Below, piece by piece: positions 1,682-62,100 of a stretch of 64,000 nucleotides of DNA. The stretch comes from an uncultured Candidatus Saccharibacteria bacterium (GTDB lineage: Bacteria > Patescibacteriota > Minisyncoccia > Phycocordibacterales > UBA9973): NCBI GenBank assembly GCA_964646765.1, contig CAZYIA010000003.1, positions 66,815-130,814 of the forward strand, in the 5' to 3' direction. The notes beneath the pieces were generated by a model, which made no database searches, was not told the origin of the DNA, and was given only the letters and a program-made list of their open reading frames with translations. Both the position numbers and the translations under genes were made by a program. Every line of letters starts with the position of its first letter. Position 1 is the stretch's first letter.

Positions 1682-4600
1682 ATGTTACCAATTGCGATTG
1701 CTCGATCATTCCGAGCCACAGTGTTTTCTCTGGTCGTACTTTTCTCATTAACGGCAGTACCGGTATTTGCCGCTCCTCCAACGTTGGCAAATTATACGTA
1801 CGCAACAACAGCAACAACAACGAGTGCGACAGCTGACTACACATTTACTTTTACAACAGCAACTGAGGTTACTAACGCTAGTGAAATGATTTTCAAAGGA
1901 GATTTTGGATCTTCGTTTGATCTCTCATCAAGTACAGCTGCTGTTACTGTTGGCGGCACTCCTATAACAGTTGGAGAATTTTGGAATGGAGGAGGAAGTG
2001 GCAATGTATATATTCGGTTAACTGATACAGTACCCGCAGGCTCAAACGTTGTAGTTACCATTTCAAATATTGTTAATCCAAGTTCAGCAGGGTACTACAC
2101 TATTGACTCGGTTGGGACAGGGGACAGTGGACGAAACACTATTGATGCTGTGCCGTATACAACAACATTTACTATTGGTGATCCTACGCCAATTTTTGAT
2201 GGTGGTGATGGATCTGATGGATCACCATTTTTAATCAGTACATGTTTACAACTACAAGGAATATCGCACGATCTTACTGCTACAGCTCACTATAAACTTA
2301 CGACCGATGTTGATTGTTCAGAAACATCGTCGTGGAATGGTGGTAAAGGATTTACACCACTTGGTGATGGAGGTCATCCATTCATGGGGACATTCTTGGG
2401 TAATGGTCACATAATTTCAAATCTCTATATTAATGATGCAGCTTCTGCGTATGCTGGTTTATTTGGTAATGCCTATGGTGGAGCTGTTATCCGAGGCGTT
2501 CAACTGAGTGGCGCCACCGTTATTGGTGGAACGAGCGTTGGTTCTCTTGTTGGGAGCATGGCTGGCGTTACATTTGAATATAACAGTGTAATAACTGCAA
2601 CGGTAACTGCTTCAAATGGCGCAGGATCCGCTGGAGGACTCATTGGGTATGCGGGAGAAGCGAACAATATTCATGATTCCTACTCACAAGACGCAACCAT
2701 AAACGGAGGCACAAGCGCCGGTGGTGTTATTGGTTGGCTTAATGATGGAGTATACAGTTTAGTTTCTAATCTTTATTTTGCTGGCACCAACCTTACTGCT
2801 GGTGACTTCGCCGGACCAATTGCAGGAAGTTCAAACAATACAGTTTCAAATTCGTTTTATGATCATGATCTATACGGAAGTGATAATGGGGTTGGAACAG
2901 CTAAGACAACCGGTGAGATGCAAACTGAATCAACATTCACTGATGCCACTTGGGATTTTGAAGATGTCTGGGTGCTTAATGTAGAAAGTTATCCAACACT
3001 GCGATGGACAGAGCCGGTAACAGCAACCTATGGTGGAGGCGATGGCTCGGAAGGTAGTCCGTTTCAGATAAGTTCGTGCGATCAGTTGCAGTACATGTCT
3101 CATGATCTTACCGCACATTATATTTTGACCGGAGATGTAGATTGTTCAGGAATTACCAACTTCAAGCCAGTTGGTACGATTGATACTCCGTTTACTGGTG
3201 GATTTGATGGAGATCATCACACTATTTCAAATCTCAATATTAACCGACCACTTCGTGACACGGGTGTTGGTTTGTTCGGCGCAATTCAAGGAGTTGCCAT
3301 CACAGATCTTGTTTTAAACACCAACATAAATATCTCAGGTCATGATTATGTAGGTTCTCTCGTTGGTAACGCTGTTAACAGTCAGATAACAAATGTGACT
3401 GCAACTGCAACAGTTAGTGGCCACGGACAAGTTGGTGGACTGATCGGAGCAATCAATGGTGGAACAAATGTTACGCATTCCTCAGTGCTAAATGGAACCA
3501 CCGTGAGTGGATCCTCAGCTGTTGGTGGTTTGATTGGGTTGGAAGCTTCATCAACATATGGAGTGTTTTATGTGACACAGTCATCCGCGGCAGCTACAAC
3601 CGTGAGCGGTGATAATGGAAACATTGGTGGCTTGATCGGGTATGTTTCAACTGGAGGTATTGCCGATTCATACTCTCAATCAAATATAAGTCTTGGAGGC
3701 ATTGCCGTTTCTCAGGTTGGTGGTCTTATCGGTGGTATGAGTCATGGCATGTTGCTTCGAACCTATGCAGCAGGAACTGTTTCGACAAATAGTACTAATG
3801 CCACTACCGCTGGCTTAGTTGGAGGAGCATTCTTTAGAGGATCAATTACCGACTCATTTAGTGCGGTCCATAACTCTGGTATTGGTGCAAGTTTCGTGTA
3901 TGGATTGTATGGATCATTTAGTCTGGATACTGGTGATGGCTTTGCACTTTCCAATAACTTTTATGACGGAAGTCAAAATGACAGCAACGCATGTTATGCA
4001 AGTGGTCCTGATAGTGAATTAAACTGTGTGCAAATCAATCCAATTGATCCCGCAACATATTGGAAGCAGGTAATTAACAGTCCAATTGCAGTGTGGGATA
4101 CCACTACTGTTTGGAATGTTGCTACCAGTGGTTCAAATTGGCCTGAACTTTATGCAGAAGGTGAGCACGCCCCAACAGTGTTTGCTGGAACAGGTACCAC
4201 AAACGATCCATATCAAATCGGTAGTTGTGGTCAGCTTCAGGCAATGAACGAACACCTCGACTCACACTTTATTCTTTTAAGTGATATTAATTGTTCTGAA
4301 ACTTCAGCTTGGAACAGCGGTCTTGGCTTTTCACCAGTAGGAGATCAGACGGATAGATTCCAGGGAGAACTCAACGGTGACGGTCATACTATTAGCGGTT
4401 TGACGATTAACCGTCCTGCTCAAGTTGATGTTGGTTTGTTTGGATATACAGATGGTGCGCTTATAAAAAATATATCTTTAACCACCGCAACAATTACTGG
4501 TCTTACGTATGTTGGAGCACTGGCAGGTTTTATCCGCGATACGACTCTCAATGATGTATCTATTAGTGCAACCGTGAGTGGTGAAAGTAATATAGGTGCG

Positions 4601-5914
4601 CTTGCCGGAATTATTACAGAATCAACAGTTGAAGACTCAAATTCGGAAGGAACTGTCACCAGTTCTGCTAGTCTTGCTGGTGGTTTTGCTGGGGAGACAG
4701 CTTGCGGATCAGAATTCTCACGTGATTTTTCTACAGCAACTGTGAGCGGCGAAACAGATATTGGTGGATTTACCGGATTTGATGGTTGTGAAGGACCTGG
4801 ATCAATATTTAATGAAGTGTATGCAACTGGTAGTGTGACTGGGACAAATAAAGGCATAGGAGGATTGATTGGTCATGCAGTTCAATCGACAGTTCAAAAT
4901 GCGTATGCGAGTGGTGATGTACACGGATCTGACTTAGTTGGTGGTCTTGTTGGAAACGGAATGGATGGTACCTATGCAAAAGTATATGCTCGAGGCCATG
5001 TAACCGGAACTACAGGAAATGTTGGTGGATTATTTGGTAAATTAGCTGGCCAAGAAATTACCATCTCTAATACCGATACTTTTTTTGACGCAACTATTAT
5101 GTCTAACGATCCTGGAACTTGGGGGACAGGGAAGACAACAGCGCAAATGAATTCTAATGGAACATTTATTACTGCTGGTTGGGATTTTGAAGAAGTGTGG
5201 GCTCGCCGTGATGTGCACAATGATGGCTACCCATACTTTAAGTGGCAGTTTGAAGAAACAGACACAACAGCCCCAGTTATCATTTTGACTTCACAACCTC
5301 CACGAAATACAACTACTTCAAATGTCATTTGGGCATTTCAAACAAATGAAGCTTGTGAGGTGATTGCCGAACCAATAGTTGCATCTCCAGCATATGAGGC
5401 TGAGCTTCTCTTTGAAGAAGTTCAGGTTGGTACTAATGTTCATGGAACACTACAACCAGTTCAAACAGGGGAAACATACACTATTACATTTAGTTGTCGC
5501 GATAACGCAGGTAATGTTTCAAATGAGCTCACCGTCGGACCATTTACTGTTGGGAATGGCTCAGGTCCTGTTCTTATCACCACTCCTATCCCAGGATATG
5601 GAGGAGTTCCGCCACTTAATTCTTCTACGGGCACTCCTGGATTAAATGGTGGAATCTCAAACACTGAAATTTTCACGCACGATCTCGGCTTTGGTATGAC
5701 TGATCCTGATGTGAAGCGTCTCCAAGAGTACCTTAACAGCCACAATGCTCAAATTGCTAAATCTGGTCCTGGATCTCCAGGAAAAGAAACTACCCGATTT
5801 GGTTCTCTCACGAGAAGCGCTCTTAAGAAATTTCAGAAAGCACACGGCATTACCCCAACAACTGGTTACTTTGGACCAAAGACCCGAAAGTGGGTGAATG
5901 AGCACTGGAATTAG
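1682..5914 (+). CDS. Giant secreted GLUG-repeat surface protein with C-terminal peptidoglycan-binding domain (1410 aa)
   Basis: N-terminal signal peptide (FSLVVLFSLTAVPVFAAPP). Three copies of a roughly 280-aa module (GDGSxGSPFxIxxCxQLQxxxHDLxxHYxLxxDxDCSxT...GHxISNLxIN) followed by arrays of GGLIG/GGLVG (GLUG) motifs. The C-terminal 60 aa form a PG_binding_1-like domain (LQEYLN...GPGSPGKETTRFGSLTRSALKKFQKAHGITPTTGYFGPKTR). Confidence 0.85.
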   Translation: MLPIAIARSFRATVFSLVVLFSLTAVPVFAAPPTLANYTYATTATTTSATADYTFTFTTATEVTNASEMIFKGDFGSSFDLSSSTAAVTVGGTPITVGEFWNGGGSGNVYIRLTDTVPAGSNVVVTISNIVNPSSAGYYTIDSVGTGDSGRNTIDAVPYTTTFTIGDPTPIFDGGDGSDGSPFLISTCLQLQGISHDLTATAHYKLTTDVDCSETSSWNGGKGFTPLGDGGHPFMGTFLGNGHIISNLYINDAASAYAGLFGNAYGGAVIRGVQLSGATVIGGTSVGSLVGSMAGVTFEYNSVITATVTASNGAGSAGGLIGYAGEANNIHDSYSQDATINGGTSAGGVIGWLNDGVYSLVSNLYFAGTNLTAGDFAGPIAGSSNNTVSNSFYDHDLYGSDNGVGTAKTTGEMQTESTFTDATWDFEDVWVLNVESYPTLRWTEPVTATYGGGDGSEGSPFQISSCDQLQYMSHDLTAHYILTGDVDCSGITNFKPVGTIDTPFTGGFDGDHHTISNLNINRPLRDTGVGLFGAIQGVAITDLVLNTNINISGHDYVGSLVGNAVNSQITNVTATATVSGHGQVGGLIGAINGGTNVTHSSVLNGTTVSGSSAVGGLIGLEASSTYGVFYVTQSSAAATTVSGDNGNIGGLIGYVSTGGIADSYSQSNISLGGIAVSQVGGLIGGMSHGMLLRTYAAGTVSTNSTNATTAGLVGGAFFRGSITDSFSAVHNSGIGASFVYGLYGSFSLDTGDGFALSNNFYDGSQNDSNACYASGPDSELNCVQINPIDPATYWKQVINSPIAVWDTTTVWNVATSGSNWPELYAEGEHAPTVFAGTGTTNDPYQIGSCGQLQAMNEHLDSHFILLSDINCSETSAWNSGLGFSPVGDQTDRFQGELNGDGHTISGLTINRPAQVDVGLFGYTDGALIKNISLTTATITGLTYVGALAGFIRDTTLNDVSISATVSGESNIGALAGIITESTVEDSNSEGTVTSSASLAGGFAGETACGSEFSRDFSTATVSGETDIGGFTGFDGCEGPGSIFNEVYATGSVTGTNKGIGGLIGHAVQSTVQNAYASGDVHGSDLVGGLVGNGMDGTYAKVYARGHVTGTTGNVGGLFGKLAGQEITISNTDTFFDATIMSNDPGTWGTGKTTAQMNSNGTFITAGWDFEEVWARRDVHNDGYPYFKWQFEETDTTAPVIILTSQPPRNTTTSNVIWAFQTNEACEVIAEPIVASPAYEAELLFEEVQVGTNVHGTLQPVQTGETYTITFSCRDNAGNVSNELTVGPFTVGNGSGPVLITTPIPGYGGVPPLNSSTGTPGLNGGISNTEIFTHDLGFGMTDPDVKRLQEYLNSHNAQIAKSGPGSPGKETTRFGSLTRSALKKFQKAHGITPTTGYFGPKTRKWVNEHWN
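5693..5905 (+). repeat. Shared C-terminal PG-binding cassette, nucleotide-level repeat (partner at 11861-12075; diverged copy at about 9430-9640)
   Basis: 5693-5737 and 11861-11905 match at 41 of 44 nt (GGyATGACTGAyCCTGATGTGAAGCGTCTCCAAGAGTAyCTTAA). Similarity continues through GGATCTCCAGGA...TTTGGACCAAAGAC, about 80 % identity over roughly 200 nt. Confidence 0.7.
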
Positions 5915-5945
5915 GTCTCAGTACTACAAATTTATCCACACATAT

Positions 5946-5978
5946 AGTAAAGGGAGCCAAGTCTTGGCTCCCTTTACT
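5946..5978 (+). terminator. Perfect 16-bp inverted repeat between surface-protein genes 1 and 2
   Basis: AGTAAAGGGAGCCAAG-tc-TTGGCTCCCTTTACT. There is no T tract, so it could be a terminator, an attenuator or an RNA processing/protein-binding site. Confidence 0.5.
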
Positions 5979-5993
5979 ATATACTTAGAGCAT

Positions 5994-8900
5994 ATGTTTA
6001 TATCACGACGTCTTTTTTCAGTCGTTTTCTTTGCGATTGCTATTGTACTAGTATCGGGAGTTTCATTTCCAACCATCGTTCATGCCGCGGCAACCGATGT
6101 TACTTCGTGTGCAGATTTTGAAAATATCAATAACAGTCTTGATGGTGATTATGTTCTAACCACTAACATTGATTGTACCGACGAAGGTAACGCGATCATG
6201 GTAGGCACTGACGGTAGTCCGTTCACTGGTACATTTGATGGCCAAGGTCATAAAATTACCGTAAACATTAATGTTACAGGTAGTGATTATGTCGGTCTCT
6301 TCCGAGCAATTTCAGATCCGGGTACTCGTGTAGAAAATTTGTGGGTTTCTGGCACAATCGCCGTTACCAACCAACATGGTACTGGTGCGGTAGTTGGAGA
6401 AACAAAAAGTAACTCCACTGTTTCAGAAGTAGTTAGCGATGCAACCATTACTTCTAATTATTACAACGTCGGTGGTCTCATTGGCGAAATGACCGGAAAT
6501 TCTCTTCTGGCTGATTCCTACTTCGTTGGTTCAGTCACGGCAAACATTAATATTGGGGGACTGGTTGGTTCGGCGGCAAATGCAGAAATTACTACTTCAT
6601 ATGCTGCGGGAGAAATTCACACAGACTATTTTCATAATTGGGCTGGTGGGTTAGTGGGTCATACATTCAACAGTGCTGTCTATATTATTTACTCTTTCAA
6701 CGCGAGCTCGATGGACACCAACGGCGGCGGTTTGATCGGTTATAGAGATGATACGCTCAGCGTCAGTGATAGTTACTACGATGCCACTATTTCTGGAGCC
6801 ACTGCCTGCGATCATGAAGACGTCGGTGGATCACTCACAGGTTGTACGGCTATTGTTGGTAATTCAGGTTATTTTAAAGATGACGTAACAAGCACCGCAC
6901 CATTTGCAGGCGGTACTTGGAATTTCACCGACACATGGGAGATTGCTACCAATGACTACCCACGACTCAAAGTGTTTGAAGCACTTTACCCAGTTCCGAC
7001 ATACGCAGGCGGAGTTGGCACACCAGAAAATCCATATCAAATCACTACTTGTGCGGGTATTGAAGATATCGACAACCATCTTTCAGCCTCATATGTGCTT
7101 AACAGTGATATCGATTGTACTTCAGCGCAAAATGACATTATTGTCCGAGGCCAATTCTCCGGAACGTTCAATGGTAATGGTCACACCATCACACTTTATA
7201 TAGACACGACAGATGACGGCATCGGTTTGTTTGAAATACTCTACGGTGCACACGTCAAAAATCTGCATCTTAGTGGTCAAATCATGGGAGGTGGTCTTGA
7301 AGGCGCGCTCGCTGGTACAGCAGATAATGGAACAATCATCCAATATGTAGGCAGTGATGTAAGCGTGTCTACACATACTGGTTCAAACCTGACTGGCGGC
7401 CTTGTTGGATTGCTGACACAGCACTCGTTAATTTCAAATTCGTTTAGCACTGGAGAAATTACAGCAGATGGATACGCAACCGGCGGTTTAGTAGGTTCAC
7501 TCTTTTATAGCGGAAGTATTGATCGTTCGTATGCTTCAGGCGCGGTTCATGGCGGGACAGATACAGGTGGCCTCGTTGGTAAGGGTGATACGCAGGCAGG
7601 ATCAATCACTCAAAGTTTCCAAGCCGGCCATGTGGACGGCGGACCGAATACTGGAAGTATTATTGGAGAAAGAGCGGCAGCAACATTGGCTGATGATTAC
7701 TTTGACGCAGACATAAATGGTCTCGGTGCTGTTTGTGCTGGAGATGCAAGTAACGCATGTACTTTTGTGAATGGCGAGGGAAGTAATCCGAATTATTTCA
7801 TTAACAATAGTGAGAATCCTCCGTTTCCTGAATGGGACTTCAATAACGTATGGATAACCAGCACAGGGAAGCTGCCATATTTGCGGACACCAGTTACCGC
7901 TTCGATGGCATACTATCCGCTCGATGATATCAGCGGTTCGTTTACTCAAACTACTCCAGATCTTACAGGGTTTCGTGATGCAACACTGCACGGTGCTACA
8001 CTCCCATCTCGTGTTACGGGCAACTTCCAGCATGCCCTGTCGTTTAACGGATCAAACTATGCAAGTACCTCACTTCCATTTTCTCAAAGCGGCACAATAT
8101 CGCTCTGGGCATACCCAACGACAACAGGTGCTGGCATAAGTCCTGCAGGTTGGAAGCTCACAGGTCCAGGTAATGGTTATGTGCTTTTGGATGAAGGCGA
8201 TGGAAGTCATTGGCGCGCAAATTTTCAGCCGGATATTGATGGTGCGAGTGGAGTAGTAGTAGAAGATTTAAGTTCAATTGCTACCAATCAATGGAACCAT
8301 TTAGTGATGACGTGGTCATATAATTCAATTGCAAATGAGACCACAGTTCATTTGTACGTAAACGGAGTTGATAAAGGCTCAGAGATTTGGGCTGGCACAC
8401 CAGGTGCTAATGGCCTCGGCGGATTCAATATCGGAAAGTCAGGAGATTCTAATGGCGATTACTTCACTGGTAAAATTGATGAAGTCCGCGTATACGATTA
8501 TGCCCTCGGCGCCGGAGAGGTTGCGGATCTCGCCGGTCTCGCTGTTGATCATGTGAGCGGCGTGCCAACCGTCACTGCTACAAGTCCGGAAGACGGCGCA
8601 ACTGGAGTACAAACTAATCATGAAATGAGCGGCACGATTACTTTCTCGGAGGCGATGAATCCGAACCTAAGCGAACTTTCATTTGCTCCATGTGCTTCTA
8701 CATGTCCAACCGCGGTTCTTGGTTGGGACAATGGTGATACCGTACTTGGGTTCTTGATTAATGATCCAAATCCACTCGCCCCAAATACTGAGTATACCGT
8801 TATTGTACGTGGCCAAAGTGTTGAAGGCGTATTAATGGCTTCACCATATTCGTTCTCATTTACTACTGAAGATACAGTTACGGAAACTCCAATCATGGAA

Positions 8901-9665
8901 ATTACCGCTCCACAGTCAGGTAGTTCTTATAAAACCAATGAAACGATGCATTTTAATTTCACACTTCCAGAGTTAATGTCTGCCGATACTTTGTCTATCA
9001 CATTTACGCGAACTGACACAGATGCCTCCGATATTGTTCTCAATATGAAGGATGCAAATGCAGAACAAGAAAATATCTTTGATTTACCTCTCAATAATCT
9101 AGCTGGTGCAGAAGAAGTAGTACTTGCTCACGTGATGCAGGATACGGTAAACAATATTCCTGCTGGAACCTATACCATTACGCTTTCGTACCAAGATGCT
9201 GCAGGAAATCCTGCTGCTACGGCTTCAATTTCAAATATTGTTATTGCTGAACCGACAGTCACTTCGCACAACGTTACTCTTATTCCTTCAGGCCCTGGTA
9301 GTATTGGACACTTTGTTTCATCTTCAGGTACGAACGCATCCGACTGCCAACCAGGATTTCTTGTTTCGCCAAATACGGGGCAATCCTGTATCCAGGAGCA
9401 ACAGCCCACAGCTATCTTCCTCAAGGACCTCAAAAAGGGAATGGTTGATCCCGACGTCTCTAAACTTCAACACTACCTTGATCTCGCTGGTTTCCCAGTA
9501 GCACTTACTGGCCCAGGCTCGCTTAACCATGAAACTACGACTTTTGGGTCAAAAACAGTGATAGCTTTAAAGAAATTTCAGAAAGCTCATGGTATTCCAG
9601 CAACTGGTTTCTTTGGACCAAAAACGAGAGCCTATGTTAATGCTCATCTCGATATACTCAAATAA
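5994..9665 (+). CDS. Giant secreted GLUG-repeat protein with LamG (concanavalin-like) lectin domain and C-terminal peptidoglycan-binding domain
   Basis: ATG at 5994 gives a signal peptide (MFISRRLFSVVFFAIAIVLVSGVSFPTIVHAAA), whereas the track start at 5898 overlaps gene 1. GLUG motifs are present (VGGLIGEMTG, IGGLVGSAAN, TGGLVGKGD). A Laminin_G_3-like block spans LHGATLPS...GTISLWAYP...NQWNHLVMTW...LYVNGV...GKIDEVRVYDYAL. The C-terminus is PG_binding_1-like (DVSKLQHYLD...FQKAHGIPATGFFGPKTRAYV). Confidence 0.85.
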   Translation: MFISRRLFSVVFFAIAIVLVSGVSFPTIVHAAATDVTSCADFENINNSLDGDYVLTTNIDCTDEGNAIMVGTDGSPFTGTFDGQGHKITVNINVTGSDYVGLFRAISDPGTRVENLWVSGTIAVTNQHGTGAVVGETKSNSTVSEVVSDATITSNYYNVGGLIGEMTGNSLLADSYFVGSVTANINIGGLVGSAANAEITTSYAAGEIHTDYFHNWAGGLVGHTFNSAVYIIYSFNASSMDTNGGGLIGYRDDTLSVSDSYYDATISGATACDHEDVGGSLTGCTAIVGNSGYFKDDVTSTAPFAGGTWNFTDTWEIATNDYPRLKVFEALYPVPTYAGGVGTPENPYQITTCAGIEDIDNHLSASYVLNSDIDCTSAQNDIIVRGQFSGTFNGNGHTITLYIDTTDDGIGLFEILYGAHVKNLHLSGQIMGGGLEGALAGTADNGTIIQYVGSDVSVSTHTGSNLTGGLVGLLTQHSLISNSFSTGEITADGYATGGLVGSLFYSGSIDRSYASGAVHGGTDTGGLVGKGDTQAGSITQSFQAGHVDGGPNTGSIIGERAAATLADDYFDADINGLGAVCAGDASNACTFVNGEGSNPNYFINNSENPPFPEWDFNNVWITSTGKLPYLRTPVTASMAYYPLDDISGSFTQTTPDLTGFRDATLHGATLPSRVTGNFQHALSFNGSNYASTSLPFSQSGTISLWAYPTTTGAGISPAGWKLTGPGNGYVLLDEGDGSHWRANFQPDIDGASGVVVEDLSSIATNQWNHLVMTWSYNSIANETTVHLYVNGVDKGSEIWAGTPGANGLGGFNIGKSGDSNGDYFTGKIDEVRVYDYALGAGEVADLAGLAVDHVSGVPTVTATSPEDGATGVQTNHEMSGTITFSEAMNPNLSELSFAPCASTCPTAVLGWDNGDTVLGFLINDPNPLAPNTEYTVIVRGQSVEGVLMASPYSFSFTTEDTVTETPIMEITAPQSGSSYKTNETMHFNFTLPELMSADTLSITFTRTDTDASDIVLNMKDANAEQENIFDLPLNNLAGAEEVVLAHVMQDTVNNIPAGTYTITLSYQDAAGNPAATASISNIVIAEPTVTSHNVTLIPSGPGSIGHFVSSSGTNASDCQPGFLVSPNTGQSCIQEQQPTAIFLKDLKKGMVDPDVSKLQHYLDLAGFPVALTGPGSLNHETTTFGSKTVIALKKFQKAHGIPATGFFGPKTRAYVNAHLDILK

Positions 9666-9681
9666 ATAATAGAACTTTACT

Positions 9682-9718
9682 AAAAAAAACCAGAACAAAT
9701 CCTCGTTCTGGTTTTTTT
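9682..9718 (+). terminator. Rho-independent terminator after surface-protein gene 2
   Basis: A8-CCAGAAC-aaatcctc-GTTCTGG-T7. Confidence 0.8.
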
Positions 9719-9784
9719 AGTTTTACTAACCGTTACCTGAAACCGTGATATACTTCAAATACTAGTAATAACGTTTTTTTGCAT

Positions 9785-12082
9785 ATGGTAAAGAAAATCC
9801 TGTTTCCGGTCGCTTTTATTTTTCTTAGTTTTGCTGTAGCTGGTGGCCTGTCGGCTAAAGTTGCTTTTGCTGCACCACAGTGTCATGCCATTGCTACGGG
9901 TAATTGGAGCGACCCTGCCATCTGGAGCAACTGTCATGGTGTTGGTGGTCTTCCAGACGCAACCGATATTGTAAGTATTTCTACTGATTCAATAGTTACT
10001 GTTGACGTCTCTAATGCTGTAGCCCGATCATTATATGTTTATGATTCTGTAAATGCTTCACGTGGCTATACGTTTACCCCCTCAGGAGTTCTTACGGTTA
10101 CCGATTACGCTACCCTTTCTGGATCAAGTGGTTCAGGGTCACAATTCATAAACGTTGGCGACGGTACTCTTATTCTCGGGGGAAATCTTCGTATAGATGG
10201 AGGGATTCTTGGTACAGCAACCGTAACTGTTAACAATGGCACTCTTACTGTTGGAGGAAGTATTCTGATGTCAGGTGGCCTAAATGCAAGTCTAGTTTCA
10301 ACTGGAACGAGTACTATCAATGTTGGAGGAGACTTAACCAATGGAGTGTTAACAACCTCAGGAACTGGAACGATAAATTTTAATGGAACTGGGGCCCAGG
10401 AGGTTTCTCCATATGCTACTTTTAATAACGTTATCATCTCGAATACTGGTGGTACTGTAACCATTGATTCAGGAGCCACTGTTATTGGCGGGGACTTATC
10501 TGTTACCTCTGGAGATCTTTATCTTGATGGTGGAACACTTGATGTTTTAGGAGATACCACAATTTCGAGTGGTGCTACATGGAGTGAAGGACCAGGTATG
10601 GCGGTTACTTTTGCTGGGAATCTCGAAAATGAAGGAACGTTTACTGCTGATACTGGTAACCATACGTTTACTGGGACTGGTAAAACAATTAGTGGAGGAA
10701 GTGGAATAGATATTCCTAATTTAGTTATTAGTGGAACTATTACTAACCACAATACTCATGCCCTCACAGCATCTTCCAGCCTATCAGGCGCCGGCACCCT
10801 CACTAATGCTAGTAGTGCAATCTTAGAAATTGGTGGAGATCTTACTATTACTACACTTGTTGCCTCTATTCCTGGTAACTTTGTGAAATACACTAAAGCG
10901 GGTGATCAAACAATTCGGGCGATCGAGTACAGCCTCCTTGCGGTGAAAAATGGGGGAGTGAAAACTATTCCTTCTGGTATTACTGTTGATTTTGCTCTAG
11001 TTATCAATGTGGGAAATGTCGTTGATTTGACGGGAACAACAACCACTCAGGTTCTGTATATGAATAATGCTAGCCAAGATGTTGGCTCTTGGGGTGCGAC
11101 TGGATCAGGGGCTGCAAATATTAACGACACCTTCTTTTCTGGAACCGGAACGGTTAATGTCACTGGTCTGACGGCAACCATTACTATCGACAGTATTTCA
11201 AATGATACCGGCGTTTCTTCGTCTGATTTTATTACCAAAACTGCAGGACAAACAGTGAATGTAACGATGAGTTTCCCCTATATTTCTGGAGAAACAGTTG
11301 AAGGTTCTGTTGATGGAGGAGCAACCTATACTAATATCAGCAGCATGGCTTCTGGAACGTCGGTTGTTTGGACTGGAGTGACATTGGCTAGTGGAACAAA
11401 CACGCTGAAAGTACGAGTTACACTTGCTCCTTCAGATATTTCTGGAACACAGGTTTATACACTTGATACTGATGCTCCAGGAACTATCGCAGCGACACCG
11501 AGCGCTGGGACATTTTCGTCATCTCAGAGCGTAACGCTCAGTTCCTCAGGAGCTACGACTGTGTACTATACGACTGATGGCACTTCTCCTTCGTGCTCAT
11601 CAGGTACACTATACTCTGGGCCGATCACTGTTTCTTCATCCGAAACTATAAACGCGATTGCTTGTGATGATGCTGGTAATGAAACGACTGGATCGTTTAC
11701 CTATACGATACACACTGGTGGGGGATCAGTATTTCTTATTCCTACTTTGCCAGTCATATCAGCTAACCTTTTAGGAAATTTGACTCAGCCACAAACCACT
11801 ACAGGTAGAGCAGGTGAACAGAATACTTCAAAAGAGTTATTCCCAAAGAATTTGTATAAAGGCATGACTGACCCTGATGTGAAGCGTCTCCAAGAGTATC
11901 TTAATGGCACATCATTTATGGTTGCGAAAACCGGCCCAGGATCTCCAGGACATGAAACTTCTCGCTTTGGTCCTGCTACGGCAAAGGCGTTAATGCTCTT
12001 CCAAAAGAGTATCGGTATTACACCGGCAACTGGTGGTTTTGGACCAAAGACGAGAGCGTACGTAAACACACATTCTCACTAA
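9785..12082 (+). CDS. Secreted beta-helix-repeat surface protein with chitobiase/hexosaminidase C-terminal-like domain and C-terminal peptidoglycan-binding domain
   Basis: Signal peptide (MVKKILFPVAFIFLSFAVAGGLSAKVAFAAP). Gly/Thr-rich parallel beta-helix-like repeats. TVYYTTDGTSPSCSSGTLYSGPITVSSSETINAIACDDAGNETTGSF resembles the CHB_HEX_C_1 fold. The C-terminus is PG_binding_1-like (DVKRLQEYLN...FQKSIGITPATGGFGPKTRAYV). Confidence 0.8.
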   Translation: MVKKILFPVAFIFLSFAVAGGLSAKVAFAAPQCHAIATGNWSDPAIWSNCHGVGGLPDATDIVSISTDSIVTVDVSNAVARSLYVYDSVNASRGYTFTPSGVLTVTDYATLSGSSGSGSQFINVGDGTLILGGNLRIDGGILGTATVTVNNGTLTVGGSILMSGGLNASLVSTGTSTINVGGDLTNGVLTTSGTGTINFNGTGAQEVSPYATFNNVIISNTGGTVTIDSGATVIGGDLSVTSGDLYLDGGTLDVLGDTTISSGATWSEGPGMAVTFAGNLENEGTFTADTGNHTFTGTGKTISGGSGIDIPNLVISGTITNHNTHALTASSSLSGAGTLTNASSAILEIGGDLTITTLVASIPGNFVKYTKAGDQTIRAIEYSLLAVKNGGVKTIPSGITVDFALVINVGNVVDLTGTTTTQVLYMNNASQDVGSWGATGSGAANINDTFFSGTGTVNVTGLTATITIDSISNDTGVSSSDFITKTAGQTVNVTMSFPYISGETVEGSVDGGATYTNISSMASGTSVVWTGVTLASGTNTLKVRVTLAPSDISGTQVYTLDTDAPGTIAATPSAGTFSSSQSVTLSSSGATTVYYTTDGTSPSCSSGTLYSGPITVSSSETINAIACDDAGNETTGSFTYTIHTGGGSVFLIPTLPVISANLLGNLTQPQTTTGRAGEQNTSKELFPKNLYKGMTDPDVKRLQEYLNGTSFMVAKTGPGSPGHETSRFGPATAKALMLFQKSIGITPATGGFGPKTRAYVNTHSH

Positions 12083-20248: not shown

Positions 20249-20905
20249 ATGAAAAAAATTCTAACATTTATGGTTGGCGCTGCATTTATTATTGCTGCTG
20301 TTGTTCTCTCAGGAGCACAGGCAAAGGCGCAGACTTTTCCGTCTGGTTGTTCTTCGTCTAGCGGTTATAGTACGACAACAGGTGTAGCATGTAATGGCAC
20401 AACAAGTTATCCAGCAGGATGTATCTCTTCATCTGGATATAGTTCGATAAGTGGTGTTCCATGTAACGGAATGGCGCTTGGTGCAAATGGCGGCTCACCA
20501 ACAATATATGGTTGTTCAGCTGGATACACGTATAGTGTCTATACCGGTGCACCATGTAATGGAGCAACTGGGCCAAACGTTGGTTCCCCTGGTGTTACCT
20601 ACTATGTCGCTGGTTGTACTTCTGCAACAGGCTATAGTTCAGTCTCAGGACTTTCCTGTGGCACCGTAGCAAGCTCTCCTGGATCGGTTAATGGTTACGC
20701 CATTCTTCCAGGTTGTGCTAATGCAGCGAGTGGATACAGTGTTGTAACAGGCCAATCATGTTATATTGCCGCGGCGAATATTAATACAGGTACGGTACCG
20801 GGAGTCCCAAATACTGATGGTGACCCAATTCGTCTTGTAGCACTTATTCTCGCAGGACTTTCTCTCTTCGGTATTGCGTATAGTATGAAACGTGTACTTG
20901 CGTAG
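20249..20905 (+). CDS. Secreted cysteine-rich repeat protein with C-terminal hydrophobic anchor / candidate sorting signal
   Basis: Signal peptide, then five tandem copies of GC-x(3-5)-GYS-x(3)-G-x(2)-C-NG (for example GCSSSSGYSTTTGVACNG, GCISSSGYSSISGVPCNG). The C-terminus is VPNTDGD-PIRLVALILAGLSLFGIAYS-MKRVLA: an LPxTG-like pentapeptide (VPNTD), a hydrophobic span and a basic tail. Confidence 0.7.
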   Translation: MKKILTFMVGAAFIIAAVVLSGAQAKAQTFPSGCSSSSGYSTTTGVACNGTTSYPAGCISSSGYSSISGVPCNGMALGANGGSPTIYGCSAGYTYSVYTGAPCNGATGPNVGSPGVTYYVAGCTSATGYSSVSGLSCGTVASSPGSVNGYAILPGCANAASGYSVVTGQSCYIAAANINTGTVPGVPNTDGDPIRLVALILAGLSLFGIAYSMKRVLA

Positions 20906-20912
20906 TTCTTAA

Positions 20913-20947
20913 CAAAAACGGATACCGAAAACGGGTATCCGTTTTTG
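20913..20947 (+). terminator. Rho-independent terminator
   Basis: AAAAACGGATACC-gaaaa-CGGGTATCCGTTTTTG. Confidence 0.65.
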
Positions 20948-20957
20948 TGTCGATAGT

Positions 20958-21593
20958 ATGAAAAAAAATTTTCTCATTTTTATATGTTTCCTGCTCATTA
21001 TCTTTATTGGAAGTGTGTGGTACATTCGCACTTCATCAGACCAGGAAGAAGCTATCCAGGCACCACTTATGGTGGTTTCTAGTCCTAGTGATGTGACCCA
21101 GCCACTCCCACAAAATACTTCGGTACTTCCGCAAGATACAACTGATACGACACTTCCCACACAGCTATCTATTCCTACTATTGGCGTAGAAACTTCTATA
21201 CAACAAGTTGGAGTAACCACGAGCGGCAATATGGCTACGCCGACAAATTATACGGATGTTGGTTGGTATAAGTATGGACCGCGGCCTGGTGAAATGGGAA
21301 GCGCCGTTATTGCTGGTCACCGTCGAAATGCAGCTTTTCTCCCTGCAGTTTTTTATCACATTAAAGATCTTGCGATAGGTGACGAAATTTTTATAACACG
21401 AAAGGATGGTACAAAACTCCGATTTAAAGTTATTCGGAGTGAGTTTTATAACTATGAAGATGTGCCAACACGACAATTATTTTTGGAAACTGGTGCCGCG
21501 TATCTAAAATTGGTTACCTGCGAAGGTGAGTGGCGAGAAGTTGATCGGACTGCTCGTGAGCGCCGAATTATAACCGCGATTCTAGAATCCTAG
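20958..21593 (+). CDS. Class F-like sortase (transpeptidase)
   Basis: N-terminal TM anchor and Pro/Thr-rich linker. Sortase core LSIPTIGVETSIQQVG...GSAVIAGHR (catalytic His) ... LVTCEG (TLxTC-type Cys) ... R (catalytic Arg). Confidence 0.8.
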   Translation: MKKNFLIFICFLLIIFIGSVWYIRTSSDQEEAIQAPLMVVSSPSDVTQPLPQNTSVLPQDTTDTTLPTQLSIPTIGVETSIQQVGVTTSGNMATPTNYTDVGWYKYGPRPGEMGSAVIAGHRRNAAFLPAVFYHIKDLAIGDEIFITRKDGTKLRFKVIRSEFYNYEDVPTRQLFLETGAAYLKLVTCEGEWREVDRTARERRIITAILES

Positions 21594-32711: not shown

Positions 32712-33035
32712 ATGGAAAACCCTAATGTGCAGCATGAGCAAGCAACTGCCCACGTGTCTTATAAAGAAACTCGAGAGCTTTTAGATGAACTTCGGGTTGA
32801 CCGGTTAGCGAACCAATTTTCAAATCGAGTAGCCACATTGGTGATTGCTTCACTTGGTTTAACTACTGCGCTTGCTTGGGACGATACCCTTCGTGGAATT
32901 TTCCATGCCATCTTCGGCGCTAGTGAGTCGCTTGGTGAAAAAATTCTCTATTCGGTTTTAGTTACTCTATGCGCGGTTATCATTACCATTGTTCTGGCTC
33001 GCTCGATTCGCCGGAAAGATAAAATAAAGGAATAA
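32712..33035 (+). CDS. Small hypothetical 2-TM membrane protein
   Basis: Two hydrophobic helices. Start at MENPN. Confidence 0.35.
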   Translation: MENPNVQHEQATAHVSYKETRELLDELRVDRLANQFSNRVATLVIASLGLTTALAWDDTLRGIFHAIFGASESLGEKILYSVLVTLCAVIITIVLARSIRRKDKIKE

Positions 33036-58980: not shown

Positions 58981-61900
58981 ATGTCCAGTCTGTGGGGCGT
59001 CCTCGTTAGGTATAAAACACTCGTTGTTACTTTGAGTGTGGTTTTTCTGTATTCCGGAAGTGTCGCTCTTGCTGCAATGACGTATGTTGCACCCGGAGCA
59101 ACCACTGATCCTGCTGGAACTCCTGGGAACTATACTGTTGGCCCGCTTCTCTCTTACGGCTTTACCGCAACTTCGGGTCACAATAATGAAGCTCTCTACA
59201 TTGATGGGTCAGGAAACGTGGCAAGCGATCCGCTGTTCTATCGCTACTCAAGTACTGGTGATTTTGGTGTTGCTGGAAGTTTTGCAACGAATGAAATGGC
59301 CGCACTTAATTTAAATAGCAACAAGCAACAGGCTAGTTTAATGTATCAAAATACCGTAACTGGCGAACGAGCCCAGTATAGTGCAGGTGGCGGCGGATCT
59401 ATTGGTCTTGAGGCATCCTATGAAGACGGGGGGAACATGCTTAATACTTTTGACATGAACGCAAATGCTACGACACTTACCTGGGATCCAGATACTACTG
59501 ATGGTGTAACCACAAAAATTATTCAGTCGCAAAATGGGAGCGCATTTGCTGTTCCAGGAACATTTCTTTTATGGGACGATACAGCAGCAAATATTGAAGG
59601 GGCAATTGGGGTAGCTGATACTACAGCGCTGGGCGGTACACCAGGAACAGCCGCAATGACTAGTCGGAATACTGCAACGGGGAATATTGCTAGTTGGAAT
59701 ACAACCTATGATCCTGGACTCGGTGAAGCAGATGCTTCTGGGAGTGCTCAGAATGGTTCCACAATTGCCGTTATTGATTTAAATAGTACCCATTCAAATT
59801 TTGTTTTTTCAAACGATGGAGGTTCTACCTATTCATTAGTACAAGCTGAGGCAAGCAAGTCCTATATGGGGGTTAATACTGGTATTGCCCTATATCAGGC
59901 CATGATCAACTCATCAGGCAGTTTTAAAGTGAAAGATTCAGTACTCGACCAGCATGTGCTTGAGGCTAATGTTTCCAACTTTCATTTTGCAGTTGGAGAT
60001 CTCGATGAGGCAGTAAATAAAACTATGCTTACTCTCGATGACTTCAGTCGAGCAATTACATTTAGTTACGGTACAGGTACTCACGATTGGTATACATTCC
60101 CAGTTGGTGATGGAAATTCTGGCGAGGTATTAATGACTGACGGGAATGGACAGTTAAGTTGGGGAATCCCAGCAAGTAGCGGTTGGTCTCTTTCGGGTAA
60201 TACCGGAACAACTTATGGAACAAATTTTTTAGGAACAATTGATTCTGAAAATTTGCAGTTTCGAGTAAATAATCAACCATCTGGAATGATCGAGTGGCAG
60301 GGTACTTCTAATACTGGTTTTGGTTATTCAACCCTCACGAGTATTGTTTCGGGAGCTCAAAATGCGGCGTTTGGAATTTCGGCATTACAAAACAATCAGA
60401 ATGGTTTATTTAATTCAGCAATCGGAGCTTTTTCTTTATTCTCAAATACCGATGGTGATGAAAATACTGCAGTTGGTGCATATTCTCTCTATTCAAACCT
60501 TGCGGACTATAACGTTGCGGTAGGTCGATCAGCATTGACCACCAATACAACTGGTTCGAGCAACACAGCTATTGGACATCAAGCAGGGTATTCAATTACA
60601 TCTGGAAGTAATAATACTCTTGTTGGTTTTCATGCTGGTTACAATCAACAGACCGCTTCAAATAATATTGCTATCGGACGAGAAGCATTATTTGGATCCG
60701 GAACTCTCGCGAATAATACAGGAGCTTATAATATTGCAGTGGGATACCATTCTGGATATGCAAACTCTACAGGTAATTACAATCTATTTGCTGGATATAA
60801 TGCTGGTAGTGTAAATGATATAGGTTATGAAAACGTTTTTTTAGGGTATCAATCCGGATCGAATAATAGTAACGGTGGGCAAAATACATTTATAGGGCCT
60901 TCATCGGGTTATGCAAACACCTCGGGAAGTAATAACGTGTTTGTTGGAAATGGGGCTGGAAATGACAACAATAGTGGATTCTTTAATACCTACCTTGGAT
61001 CACAGGCGGGGAATCACACTACTTCTGGCTGGGAAAATACTGCAGTCGGAACATATGCAGGTGCCGCCAATACTACTGGAAAGACGAATATTTACGTAGG
61101 ATATCAGGCTGGTGCAAACGTTACCACCGGTAGTAGTAATATTATTATCGGACATGATATTAACGCTCCTTCTGCAACTACTGATGGCCAACTTTCAATT
61201 GGTAATCTCATTTTTGGTACCAATGTTGATGGTACCGGTACAACCATCTCAACCGGAAATGTTGGTATTGGTTTAAATAATCCGTCATATCGTCTTGATG
61301 TAAAAGCAAACTCTGGAGATGATGTTGCTCGATTCCAAGGTTCAACTGGCTCAGTTGCCTGTACGCTTTCTGGCGCAAACGGAATTATTAACTGTTCATC
61401 AGACCAACGACTAAAGAAAGATATAACATCCTTAGATACGACAACGCTCGGTAAGATTCTTTTACTCAACCCAGTAACATACCACTGGAATCAAGAAGAT
61501 TCTTCAGTAGCTCCTCATGCAGGTTTTATTGCTCAAGAAGTACAACAAGTATTTCCAGAACTTGTTGGGACAGATAAAGATACAGGATATCTCACGCTCT
61601 CTACCGTTGGGATGACGCCGTACATTGTTGAAGCAATTAAAGAAATCAATATGAAGATTAAACCTCTCGAAGATCTTCTATCTCAAGAAAATTCTTTTGC
61701 TGATCTACTGCGTACGTTCTTTGCAACAGCGGAGAATGGTATCGGTGATTTCTTTGCGAGCCGCGGGATGTTTAAAGAATCAATTTGTGTTGATGGAGAA
61801 TGTCTTACGAAAGACGATATTCATGCTCTTCTTCTACAAGCACGTGGAGGAACAACGGTAACTACAACGAACTCGGGAGGAGAGGAAGGAACAAACACTG

Positions 61901-62100
61901 ATAGTGGTAATACCACGGGAACTACTAATGGAGATGGCGGACAAGTCACTCCAACTGATACTGGAGGAACTACAGGAAATGATACTGACGTAACATCCAA
62001 CGATACAAGCTCTTCTGGAGATACTGGAATTTCTTCTGATACAGGTACTACTGGCGATACAGGAGGAGCGTCTCTTGATGGAGGTGAAGTAAGTTCATAG
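58981..62100 (+). CDS. Large secreted tail-fibre-like protein with repetitive fibre repeats and C-terminal peptidase-S74 intramolecular-chaperone (endosialidase chaperone) domain
   Basis: N-terminal signal-anchor. Long array of NTAxG/NNxxxG heptad-like fibre repeats (SNTAIGHQAGY...NNTLVGFHAGY...NNIAIGREAL...). Hallmark SDQRLKKDI ... GFIAQEVQQVFPELV chaperone motif. Thr/Gly/Asp-rich C-terminal tail. Confidence 0.75.
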   Translation: MSSLWGVLVRYKTLVVTLSVVFLYSGSVALAAMTYVAPGATTDPAGTPGNYTVGPLLSYGFTATSGHNNEALYIDGSGNVASDPLFYRYSSTGDFGVAGSFATNEMAALNLNSNKQQASLMYQNTVTGERAQYSAGGGGSIGLEASYEDGGNMLNTFDMNANATTLTWDPDTTDGVTTKIIQSQNGSAFAVPGTFLLWDDTAANIEGAIGVADTTALGGTPGTAAMTSRNTATGNIASWNTTYDPGLGEADASGSAQNGSTIAVIDLNSTHSNFVFSNDGGSTYSLVQAEASKSYMGVNTGIALYQAMINSSGSFKVKDSVLDQHVLEANVSNFHFAVGDLDEAVNKTMLTLDDFSRAITFSYGTGTHDWYTFPVGDGNSGEVLMTDGNGQLSWGIPASSGWSLSGNTGTTYGTNFLGTIDSENLQFRVNNQPSGMIEWQGTSNTGFGYSTLTSIVSGAQNAAFGISALQNNQNGLFNSAIGAFSLFSNTDGDENTAVGAYSLYSNLADYNVAVGRSALTTNTTGSSNTAIGHQAGYSITSGSNNTLVGFHAGYNQQTASNNIAIGREALFGSGTLANNTGAYNIAVGYHSGYANSTGNYNLFAGYNAGSVNDIGYENVFLGYQSGSNNSNGGQNTFIGPSSGYANTSGSNNVFVGNGAGNDNNSGFFNTYLGSQAGNHTTSGWENTAVGTYAGAANTTGKTNIYVGYQAGANVTTGSSNIIIGHDINAPSATTDGQLSIGNLIFGTNVDGTGTTISTGNVGIGLNNPSYRLDVKANSGDDVARFQGSTGSVACTLSGANGIINCSSDQRLKKDITSLDTTTLGKILLLNPVTYHWNQEDSSVAPHAGFIAQEVQQVFPELVGTDKDTGYLTLSTVGMTPYIVEAIKEINMKIKPLEDLLSQENSFADLLRTFFATAENGIGDFFASRGMFKESICVDGECLTKDDIHALLLQARGGTTVTTTNSGGEEGTNTDSGNTTGTTNGDGGQVTPTDTGGTTGNDTDVTSNDTSSSGDTGISSDTGTTGDTGGASLDGGEVSS

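Follow-up and report, generated by a model that had tools for sequence, protein, structure and literature searches.

A cysteine-loop repeat protein and its neighbouring class-F-like sortase in Patescibacteria: a predicted wall-anchoring pair with an atypical sorting signal

The envelope of bacteria of the candidate phyla radiation (CPR, or Patescibacteria), organisms that live by host-cell contact, is poorly understood. Méheust et al. (PMC6744442) noted an enrichment of MdbA-like oxidoreductases, of VKOR and of one family of sortases in CPR genomes, without naming any substrates; the literature that we searched notes this enrichment without saying what the sortases act on. A locus in a 64,000-nucleotide stretch of DNA from an uncultured Candidatus Saccharibacteria bacterium (hereafter the window; GenBank assembly GCA_964646765.1, contig CAZYIA010000003.1, positions 66,815 to 130,814, forward strand) raises this question in a concrete form. 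Here, the gene for a small, secreted, cysteine-rich repeat protein is followed by a sortase gene (Table 1), and the repeat protein ends in VPNTD, a hydrophobic helix and basic residues. Is the repeat protein the substrate of the adjoining sortase, and can such a signal still be used? An earlier note on this DNA, made from the sequence letters alone, had taken the two genes for a dedicated sortase-substrate pair with a divergent recognition motif, and possibly for a pilus-like system. Our own reading, to which we assign a probability of roughly 0.7, is that the repeat protein is a wall-anchored, disulfide-stapled surface protein and that the sortase is the enzyme predicted to attach it. Such two-gene units are widespread in Patescibacteria, and the pair in the window is one of them.

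A two-gene unit of Patescibacteria

Two same-strand open reading frames (ORFs) occupy positions 20249-21593 exactly, with the sortase ORF beginning 52 bp past the substrate ORF, and both are present as described in the earlier note, with lengths of 218 and 211 residues; the ORFs that overlap the pair in other frames or on the minus strand are mechanical and without support. A search of 5.8 billion proteins returned relatives of the repeat protein that share the signal peptide, three to five cysteine loops, the tail motif, the helix and the basic residues, and a profile search expanded the set of relatives with this layout to more than 100. The named sources are Paceibacterota, Nomurabacteria, Yanofskybacteria and 'Patescibacteria group' genomes, and all close relatives come from Patescibacteria/CPR genomes, in line with the earlier description of the host genome as CPR-like. 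In each of the six homologue loci inspected, among them those of four homologues on independent contigs, a sortase gene lies directly downstream.

The linkage is also apparent when the sortases are taken as the starting point. With one genome scanned per species, 79 related sortase loci were obtained, nearly all of them in Patescibacteria, and in 57 of these a small same-strand ORF encoding an xPxTG-type tail, a helix and basic residues ends just upstream. At least two cysteine loops are present in 24 of these 57 adjoining substrates, while most of the remainder are proteins of 75-140 residues made up almost purely of Thr, Ser and Gly. Among the nearest sortase relatives, one (P0249) has a cysteine-loop substrate directly upstream and the closest (P0248, 54% identity) a 232-residue gene in that place. 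The earlier note had proposed a search for the repeat and tail next to sortases in other CPR genomes, and had named a lack of sortase-linked homologues as grounds for giving up the pairing; with 6 of 6 homologue loci and 57 of 79 sortase loci linked, the pairing holds. Within the 64-kb window, a six-frame scan found no sortase substrate other than the repeat protein. Taken together, the locus and its relatives point to a very common candidate substrate, a small uncharged cysteine-loop or Thr/Gly-rich protein encoded upstream of the sortase, and such a protein offers a testable handle on how CPR cells decorate their walls.

Two further observations concern these loci. Tiny substrates made up almost purely of Thr, Gly and Ser, in which a stretch such as TTGTTGTTGTTG precedes xPxTG, are found in many Patescibacteria, for instance at 2550-2828 in locus L007, 2469-2714 in L016, 1359-1673 in L020 and 2649-2933 in L052; they may be minimal wall-anchored peptides. 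Genes of the types Methyltrans_SAM, FKBP_C and SIMPL are found both in one of the homologue loci (L001) and in the window (at 33035, 36996 and 42407), which suggests a wider synteny between the two.

Table 1 Features of the substrate-sortase locus; positions count from the first letter of the window
Feature	Position	Strand	Basis
VKOR-family membrane protein, 332 aa	17609..18607	+	PF07884; CxxC-type motifs visible
Cysteine-loop repeat protein gene, predicted sortase substrate	20249..20905	+	ORF, 218 aa; layout common to relatives
Predicted Sec signal peptide, residues 1 to ~27 (MKK, hydrophobic core, AQAKA)	20249..20329	+	Read from sequence; putative cleavage site
Five Cys-loop units, residues 33-50, 57-74, 88-105, 122-139, 155-171	20345..20761	+	Pattern matches
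Sorting-signal pentapeptide V186-P-N-T-D190	20804..20818	+	Aligns with LPxTG of homologues
C-terminal hydrophobic segment L196-M213 and basic tail K214 R215 VLA	20834..20902	+	Sequence; AlphaFold helix
Terminator-like hairpin, 15-bp stem, 7-nt loop, U-run	20912..20948	+	Folding compared with shuffles
Membrane-anchored sortase gene	20958..21593	+	ORF, 211 aa; Pfam Sortase; transmembrane helix 2-33, linker 34-65, catalytic beta-barrel 66-211
Catalytic His121, then Arg122-Arg123	21318..21326	+	Relatives compared
Cys188 (LVTC), β7-β8 loop EGEWREVDRTARE, Arg202, Arg203	21519..21566	+	Relatives compared

The cysteine-loop protein and its proposed maturation

What kind of protein does the first gene of the unit encode? 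Its signal-peptide region is helical in the AlphaFold model (residues 2-21), and is followed by cysteine pairs at residues 34/48, 58/72, 89/103, 123/137 and 156/171. These form five GC-x13/14-C units with ten cysteines in total, the partners within each unit being 14 or 15 residues apart; from the first unit to the fifth, the sequences are GCSSSSGYSTTTGVAC, GCISSSGYSSISGVPC, GCSAGYTYSVYTGAPC, GCTSATGYSSVSGLSC and GCANAASGYSVVTGQSC. The pattern GC-x(9-11)-G-x2-C matches five times in the substrate, against a maximum of two across 50,000 composition-preserving shuffles, so that the secreted protein with five tandem cysteine units reported in the earlier note is well founded. The unit motif given there holds overall, except that GYS reads TYS in unit 3 and that NG follows the second cysteine only in units 1-3. 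Tandem Repeats Finder detected no DNA-level repeat in the substrate gene; a recent tandem duplication at the DNA level can therefore be ruled out, and it is the protein sequence that preserves the periodicity of the loops. Asp, Glu, Lys and Arg are entirely absent from the 161 residues of the mature protein. AlphaFold models the protein with medium confidence as beads on a string (predicted local distance difference test score, pLDDT, 70; predicted template modelling score, pTM, 0.38), and a search of the PDB for folds similar to this model gave no match. Structure prediction had been suggested in the earlier note as a route to the disulfide topology; it provides a single isolated beta-bridge in each unit, with pLDDT values of ~75-80 in units 1, 2 and 4, together with a confidently predicted C-terminal helix (residues 193-217, pLDDT ~88-90). 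A match to the Pfam Galaxin_repeat model (E 0.095, 13 bits vs a cut-off of 28) was rejected as chance cysteine spacing, and NCBIfam matches to enoyl-CoA hydratase (E 0.016-0.085) were rejected as noise.

The loop itself extends well beyond the two-gene unit. No model in Pfam or NCBIfam covers it, which agrees with the earlier note, where the repeat was not recognised, but it is by no means rare: when 1.84 billion proteins were searched with a family profile, 561 cluster representatives of 77 to 1675 residues were hit, and 190 of these had E<=1e-10. The consensus of 349 family units is xxGC[TS]SxxG[YF]SxTTGxPCNG, with 13 residues between the cysteines in 339 of them, and the tandem arrangement that characterises the repeat is present in the window protein with its five units. 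Among the larger loop carriers, 72 of 86 also contain a PG_binding_1 domain, the usual order being signal peptide, PG_binding_1, two or three cysteine loops and then large variable domains. Because the module always adjoins a wall-attachment element, either PG_binding_1 or one of the sortase type, we read it as a putative wall-proximal stalk or as a module that contacts wall glycan.

On these grounds, we propose the following course of events. The 218-residue protein would be exported through Sec, and each of its five 15-16-residue Cys-to-Cys loops would be closed by a disulfide through extracytoplasmic oxidation of the MdbA/VKOR type, giving a chain of small stapled loops that is rich in Ser, Thr, Gly and Tyr and carries no charge. 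The C-terminal helix and basic tail would hold this chain in the membrane until the class-F-like sortase cleaves after Thr189 of the xPxT-G-type signal and, by analogy with the behaviour of the family, passes the protein to a peptidoglycan precursor for covalent fixation to the wall. The VKOR-family protein of the window, encoded 1.6 kb upstream of the substrate gene and outside the operon, is by its proximity a possible re-oxidant of the disulfide machinery that would close the loops. This VKOR is much longer than the minimal core: past the part that bears the CxxC, towards the C-terminus, several additional membrane segments are predicted. A DsbA-like gene was not found among the 20 ORFs scanned in the window. 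In the L001 locus, on the other hand, a DsbA/thioredoxin-like gene (5030-5815) lies directly upstream of the homologue (P0003), resulting in a row of oxidoreductase, substrate and sortase. The positions of these VKOR and DsbA-like genes would fit a closure of the loops by oxidation.

The 52 bp between the two genes hold a terminator-like hairpin with a free energy of -25.3 kcal/mol (z = -5.85; none of 200 shuffles folds as well). Similar hairpins are present in three of five homologous intergenic regions (L001, 6677-6757; L005, ~5517-5545; L087, ~2939-2980). With the window counted, four of six loci have such a hairpin. A consensus terminator scan did not list the one in the window, probably owing to base pairing between its U-run and an A-run further upstream. 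The presence of the hairpin suggests an attenuation that holds the substrate in excess over the sortase, and in the scheme above the substrate would be made in such an excess.

A dedicated sortase next to one small, probably abundant substrate, and a hairpin suggesting a high substrate-to-enzyme ratio, might also be expected if copies of the repeat protein were joined into a fibre, as a sortase-assembled pilus or polymer, and pili-like appendages have been mentioned on CPR cells (PMC8672522). However, the pili that have so far been described in CPR belong to type IV, the genes neighbouring the pair are unrelated to it and a second pilin gene is absent from the cluster, and the sortase is class-F-like by profile rather than class C. 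Moreover, with no Lys in its mature residues (and none in 92 of 108 relatives), the protein lacks the isopeptide nucleophile of known pilins. We consider a pilus very improbable, and the corresponding suggestion of the earlier note is best dropped in favour of a wall-anchored single protein.

The sorting signal and the active site of the sortase

Whether the repeat protein could be anchored in this way hinges on its C-terminus, which reads P184-G-V-P-N-T-D190-G-D, followed by PIR, the hydrophobic stretch LVALILAGLSLFGIAYSM and KRVLA. In an alignment, VPNTD falls column for column on the LPxTG of the homologues, one of which is named LPXTG cell wall anchor protein by NCBI, and the sortase-substrate architecture that the earlier note had recognised in VPNTDGD, the hydrophobic helix and the basic end is sound. 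The VP start could also suggest a PEP-CTERM/exosortase-type signal; we rejected this, given that the tail aligns with LPxTG and that the neighbouring enzyme is a sortase and not an exosortase. As to the LPXTG pattern, Pro187 and Thr189 are kept, Gly is replaced by Asp190, and the hydrophobic segment and basic end are present. VPNTD is two point changes away from LPNTG: the V186 codon GTC differs from CTC (Leu) by a single base, as does the D190 codon GAT (20816-20818) from GGT (Gly). Val lies within the range of the family, in which position 1 of 128 tails is Leu in 113, Phe in 12 and Ile, Val and Ser in one each. In substrates adjoining related sortases, position 1 is often Val, Ile, Phe or Ala (VPNTG 5, IPNTG 2, APNTG 2), and VPNTG occurs in the closest relatives, P0030 and locus L087 among them: the tail of the closest substrate relative (P0030, 52% identity) is PGVPNTGANNP, and that of the substrate adjoining the close sortase relative P0249 is PGVPNTGGGN. 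In this subclade, a Val at position 1 is thus nothing unusual. On the sequences compared, the sole odd feature of the signal is Asp at position 5, the predicted P1' residue, as a Gly-to-Asp change in a single genome.

Could this Asp simply be an assembly or consensus error, with VPNTG as the true tail? A single-base GAT/GGT difference in metagenome-derived sequence that is unique within the family would fit such an error, but an independent Logan assembly of run SRR11845619 matches the window identically across 8.6 kb, the GAT codon included, and three contigs carry the locus. The codon is thus not the artefact of a single assembler, even if both assemblies were possibly built from the same reads, and an error seems to us highly unlikely. 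Scanning metagenome contigs with the exact tail-coding DNA, the Asp codon being wild-carded, gave no matches.

The enzyme next door is, by contrast with the signal, complete in its invariant positions. It matches the Pfam Sortase family (PF04203, peptidase C60) with an E-value of 1.4e-19 and 70.5 bits (cut-off 26.6), and its catalytic His121, Cys188 (KLVTC) and Arg202 stand in columns that are invariant across 62 relatives, as expected from the intact catalytic residues listed in the earlier note. The AlphaFold model (mean pLDDT 88.4, with most of the catalytic domain reaching at least 93 in blocks of 10 residues) has an N-terminal membrane helix (2-33), a disordered linker and a beta-rich barrel (66-211), and Foldseek matches it to solved sortases of several classes with E ~1e-9 and a probability of 1.0. 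The class assignment of the earlier note is only partly right. NCBIfam class F (NF033748) is the best-scoring class at 125.1 bits (class E, 42 bits; class C, 24.8 bits), but this is under the curated cut-off of 166 bits, as are the 117-131 bits of six Patescibacteria relatives, several of which NCBI labels class F. Furthermore, actinobacterial class F enzymes are reported to have Asn instead of the catalytic Arg (PMC8703055), whereas the window sortase and the main Patescibacteria clade keep the Arg. By profile score and this residue, the accurate label for the enzyme is a class-F-like sister clade. In the sortase alignment, Asn at the catalytic Arg site occurs only in a minority of those members that lie outside the main Paceibacterota clade (L071, L073, L075 and L083-L085); some of these Asn-bearing sortases are from records of Acidimicrobiia, Actinomycetota and Protofrankia, and others carry the label Parcubacteria or Saccharibacteria.

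Two segments of the enzyme are unusual, and they are the ones of interest for the residue at P1'. One follows the catalytic His, the other is the β7-β8 loop, and in the SrtA-substrate complex both lie at the edge of the leaving-group/nucleophile site. The first reads HRRN in the window sortase vs H-[VLIFY]-[DNS]-x in 67 relatives, with H-[VL]-[DN] as the family pattern, and HRRN is unique among 68 locus-derived and ~98 database sequences. The second is CEGEWREVDRTARERR in the window, against C-x-G-x-W-x4-[RK]-T-[YH]-[DNS]-x-R-L in the family, the window having A199, R200 and R203. Together, the His-flank and β7-β8 segments contain seven Lys/Arg, compared with at most five in the 67 relatives. 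These extra arginines may represent compensation or drift. One could imagine a specificity co-evolved for VPNT|DGD, in which R123, R193 and R200 would pair with acidic P1' and P3' residues: the substrate has gained acidic D190 and D192 at the matching place, the Lys/Arg content of these segments is the highest observed, and in class A sortases selectivity at P1' is governed by the β7-β8 loop, some variants of which accept 14-15 different residues (PMC8361268). Against this, R122 and A199 are common to the window enzyme, P0248 and P0249, yet the P0249 substrate has an ordinary VPNTGGG tail; R203 and E189/E191 are common to the window enzyme and P0248; and these data are also explained by drift, given a small population. 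Since this is a single case, no statistics on co-evolution are possible, and we regard it as quite improbable, with a likelihood that overlaps with the one given below to continued processing.

Several points weigh against a wall-anchored protein that is attached by its sortase, and most of them concern Asp190. At position 5, the 128 family tails have Gly in 123, Ala in four and Thr in one (a spurious match in a truncated sequence) and Asp in none, and in the substrates adjoining related sortases it is Gly in every credible xPxTG-type tail and never Asp; the divergent recognition motif of the earlier note is accordingly not a property of the family, which uses ordinary [LFVI]PxTG. The TIGR01167 LPXTG_anchor model (cut-off 15.9 bits) has no hit in the window protein at E<=1, while four of seven homologues tested pass (P0162, P0001, P0003 and P0002, at 16.3-16.7 bits) and P0030, with its VPNTG, scores 14.0. 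Because Gly at P1' appears so strongly constrained in the clade, the signal of the window protein may be defective. Other points concern the remaining steps of the scheme: sortase activity in CPR is predicted from the behaviour of the family, the within-loop disulfide pairing is proposed from cysteine spacing and a medium-confidence model, the VKOR gene does not adjoin the pair and its product might act on secreted proteins of any kind, and both a stalk and ligand binding are candidate functions for the loops, which may do either and have no fold match in the PDB. Separately, three homologue tails (P0020, P0095 and P0176) end in LPTTAG/LPTTAGS and not in LPTTG, Ala being the sole alternative to Gly seen at P1'.

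How, then, should the Asp variant be understood? One explanation is a decayed signal, in which Asp at P1' blocks cleavage, the protein stays tethered by its helix and the sortase serves other substrates or idles. The family census and the missed TIGR01167 model point in this direction, as do the confidently predicted C-terminal helix and the strict Gly specificity of Staphylococcus aureus SrtA at P1' (PMC8361268). Yet both genes are intact, with Pro, Thr, helix and basic tail kept in the substrate and all invariant residues in the sortase; the window offers no other candidate substrate for the enzyme; and natural signals with a non-Gly P1' exist, the Lactiplantibacillus plantarum signal LPQTXE tolerating such a residue (PMC3619620). 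On balance, decay appears unlikely, although it is the most serious of the alternatives considered here, and we lean slightly towards a variant that is still processed, possibly less efficiently or aided by the unusual arginines. Anchoring by the sortase is hence retained as our reading of the locus. If the enzyme does accept Asp, the Gly-to-Asp change would be of interest to sortase engineers; in any case, it constitutes a natural experiment on P1' tolerance.

Envelope neighbours and known systems

Other genes of the window bear on the envelope of this organism. At 1682-12082 on the plus strand, three consecutive genes encode large secreted proteins (1410, 1255 and 767 residues), each with a C-terminal PG_binding_1 domain, and with Glug/Peptidase_M26_N, Laminin_G_3/Big_5 or CHB_HEX_C_1 domains in addition; the cysteine loop is absent from all three. 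From its domain content, this block looks like a set of non-covalently wall-bound surface proteins, and the three PG_binding_1 proteins are consistent with a peptidoglycan-containing envelope. Further away, at 58981-62100 on the plus strand, lies the gene for a 1039-residue protein with a Peptidase_S74 domain. In endosialidase and in tail-fibre proteins, this domain acts as an intramolecular chaperone, and the gene product could be either a fibre-like surface protein or phage-derived.

A sortase adjoining its substrate is a known kind of system, with NCBI already labelling relatives of the two proteins as LPXTG anchor and class F sortase, and the locus leaves the basic picture of sortase biology unchanged. 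In the literature that we searched, there is no description of this cassette, of its frequency in Patescibacteria or of the cysteine-loop repeat, and the association of the loop with PG_binding_1, the charge-free passenger and the combination of a P1' Asp with an arginine-enriched active-site rim likewise appear undescribed there. A more far-reaching idea, which we put forward as a long shot, is that the lineage-specific arginines recognise the acidic P1'/P3' residues and, more broadly, that the cysteine-loop protein is a major, abundant wall-anchored coat or host-contact element of Paceibacterota; if true, such a coat or host-contact protein would define a module that is absent from domain databases.

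Which known systems does the locus resemble most? The paired cysteines of a small, repetitive, low-charge passenger recall the Streptomyces chaplins ChpA-C. With the LPXTG sortases of monoderm bacteria, such as class F of Cutibacterium acnes and the class E SrtE of Streptomyces, the window enzyme shares the membrane anchor, the His-Cys-Arg triad and the beta-barrel, and the substrates have in common the signal peptide, the xPxT-x motif, the hydrophobic helix and the basic tail. The differences are that the window enzyme scores under the class F cut-off and keeps its Arg, that the cysteine-loop passenger is unrelated, and that P1' is Asp, class F enzymes being reported to use LPXTG (PMC8225981). 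In Actinomyces oris and Corynebacterium diphtheriae, sortase substrates depend on MdbA/VKOR for their folding, and these too are secreted, sortase-handled proteins that need disulfides, a parallel that has already been drawn for CPR in general (PMC6744442). However, the substrates there are pilins of an Ig-like type that contain one or two disulfides, whereas the window passenger consists of five minimal loops and is linked to VKOR by proximity. Within Patescibacteria, wall proteins with PG_binding_1 (PF01471) carry the identical GC[TS]SxxGYSxTTGxxC module next to a wall-attachment element, but combine non-covalent attachment with large distal domains (PKD, Ig-like, Kre9_KNH), while the window protein combines the loops with a covalent-type signal. 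Finally, the LPQTXE signal of L. plantarum resembles that of the window protein in that the residue following Thr is not fixed as Gly (PMC3619620); there, it is a species-wide consensus across many substrates, whereas here it is found in one protein of a family that otherwise keeps its Gly.

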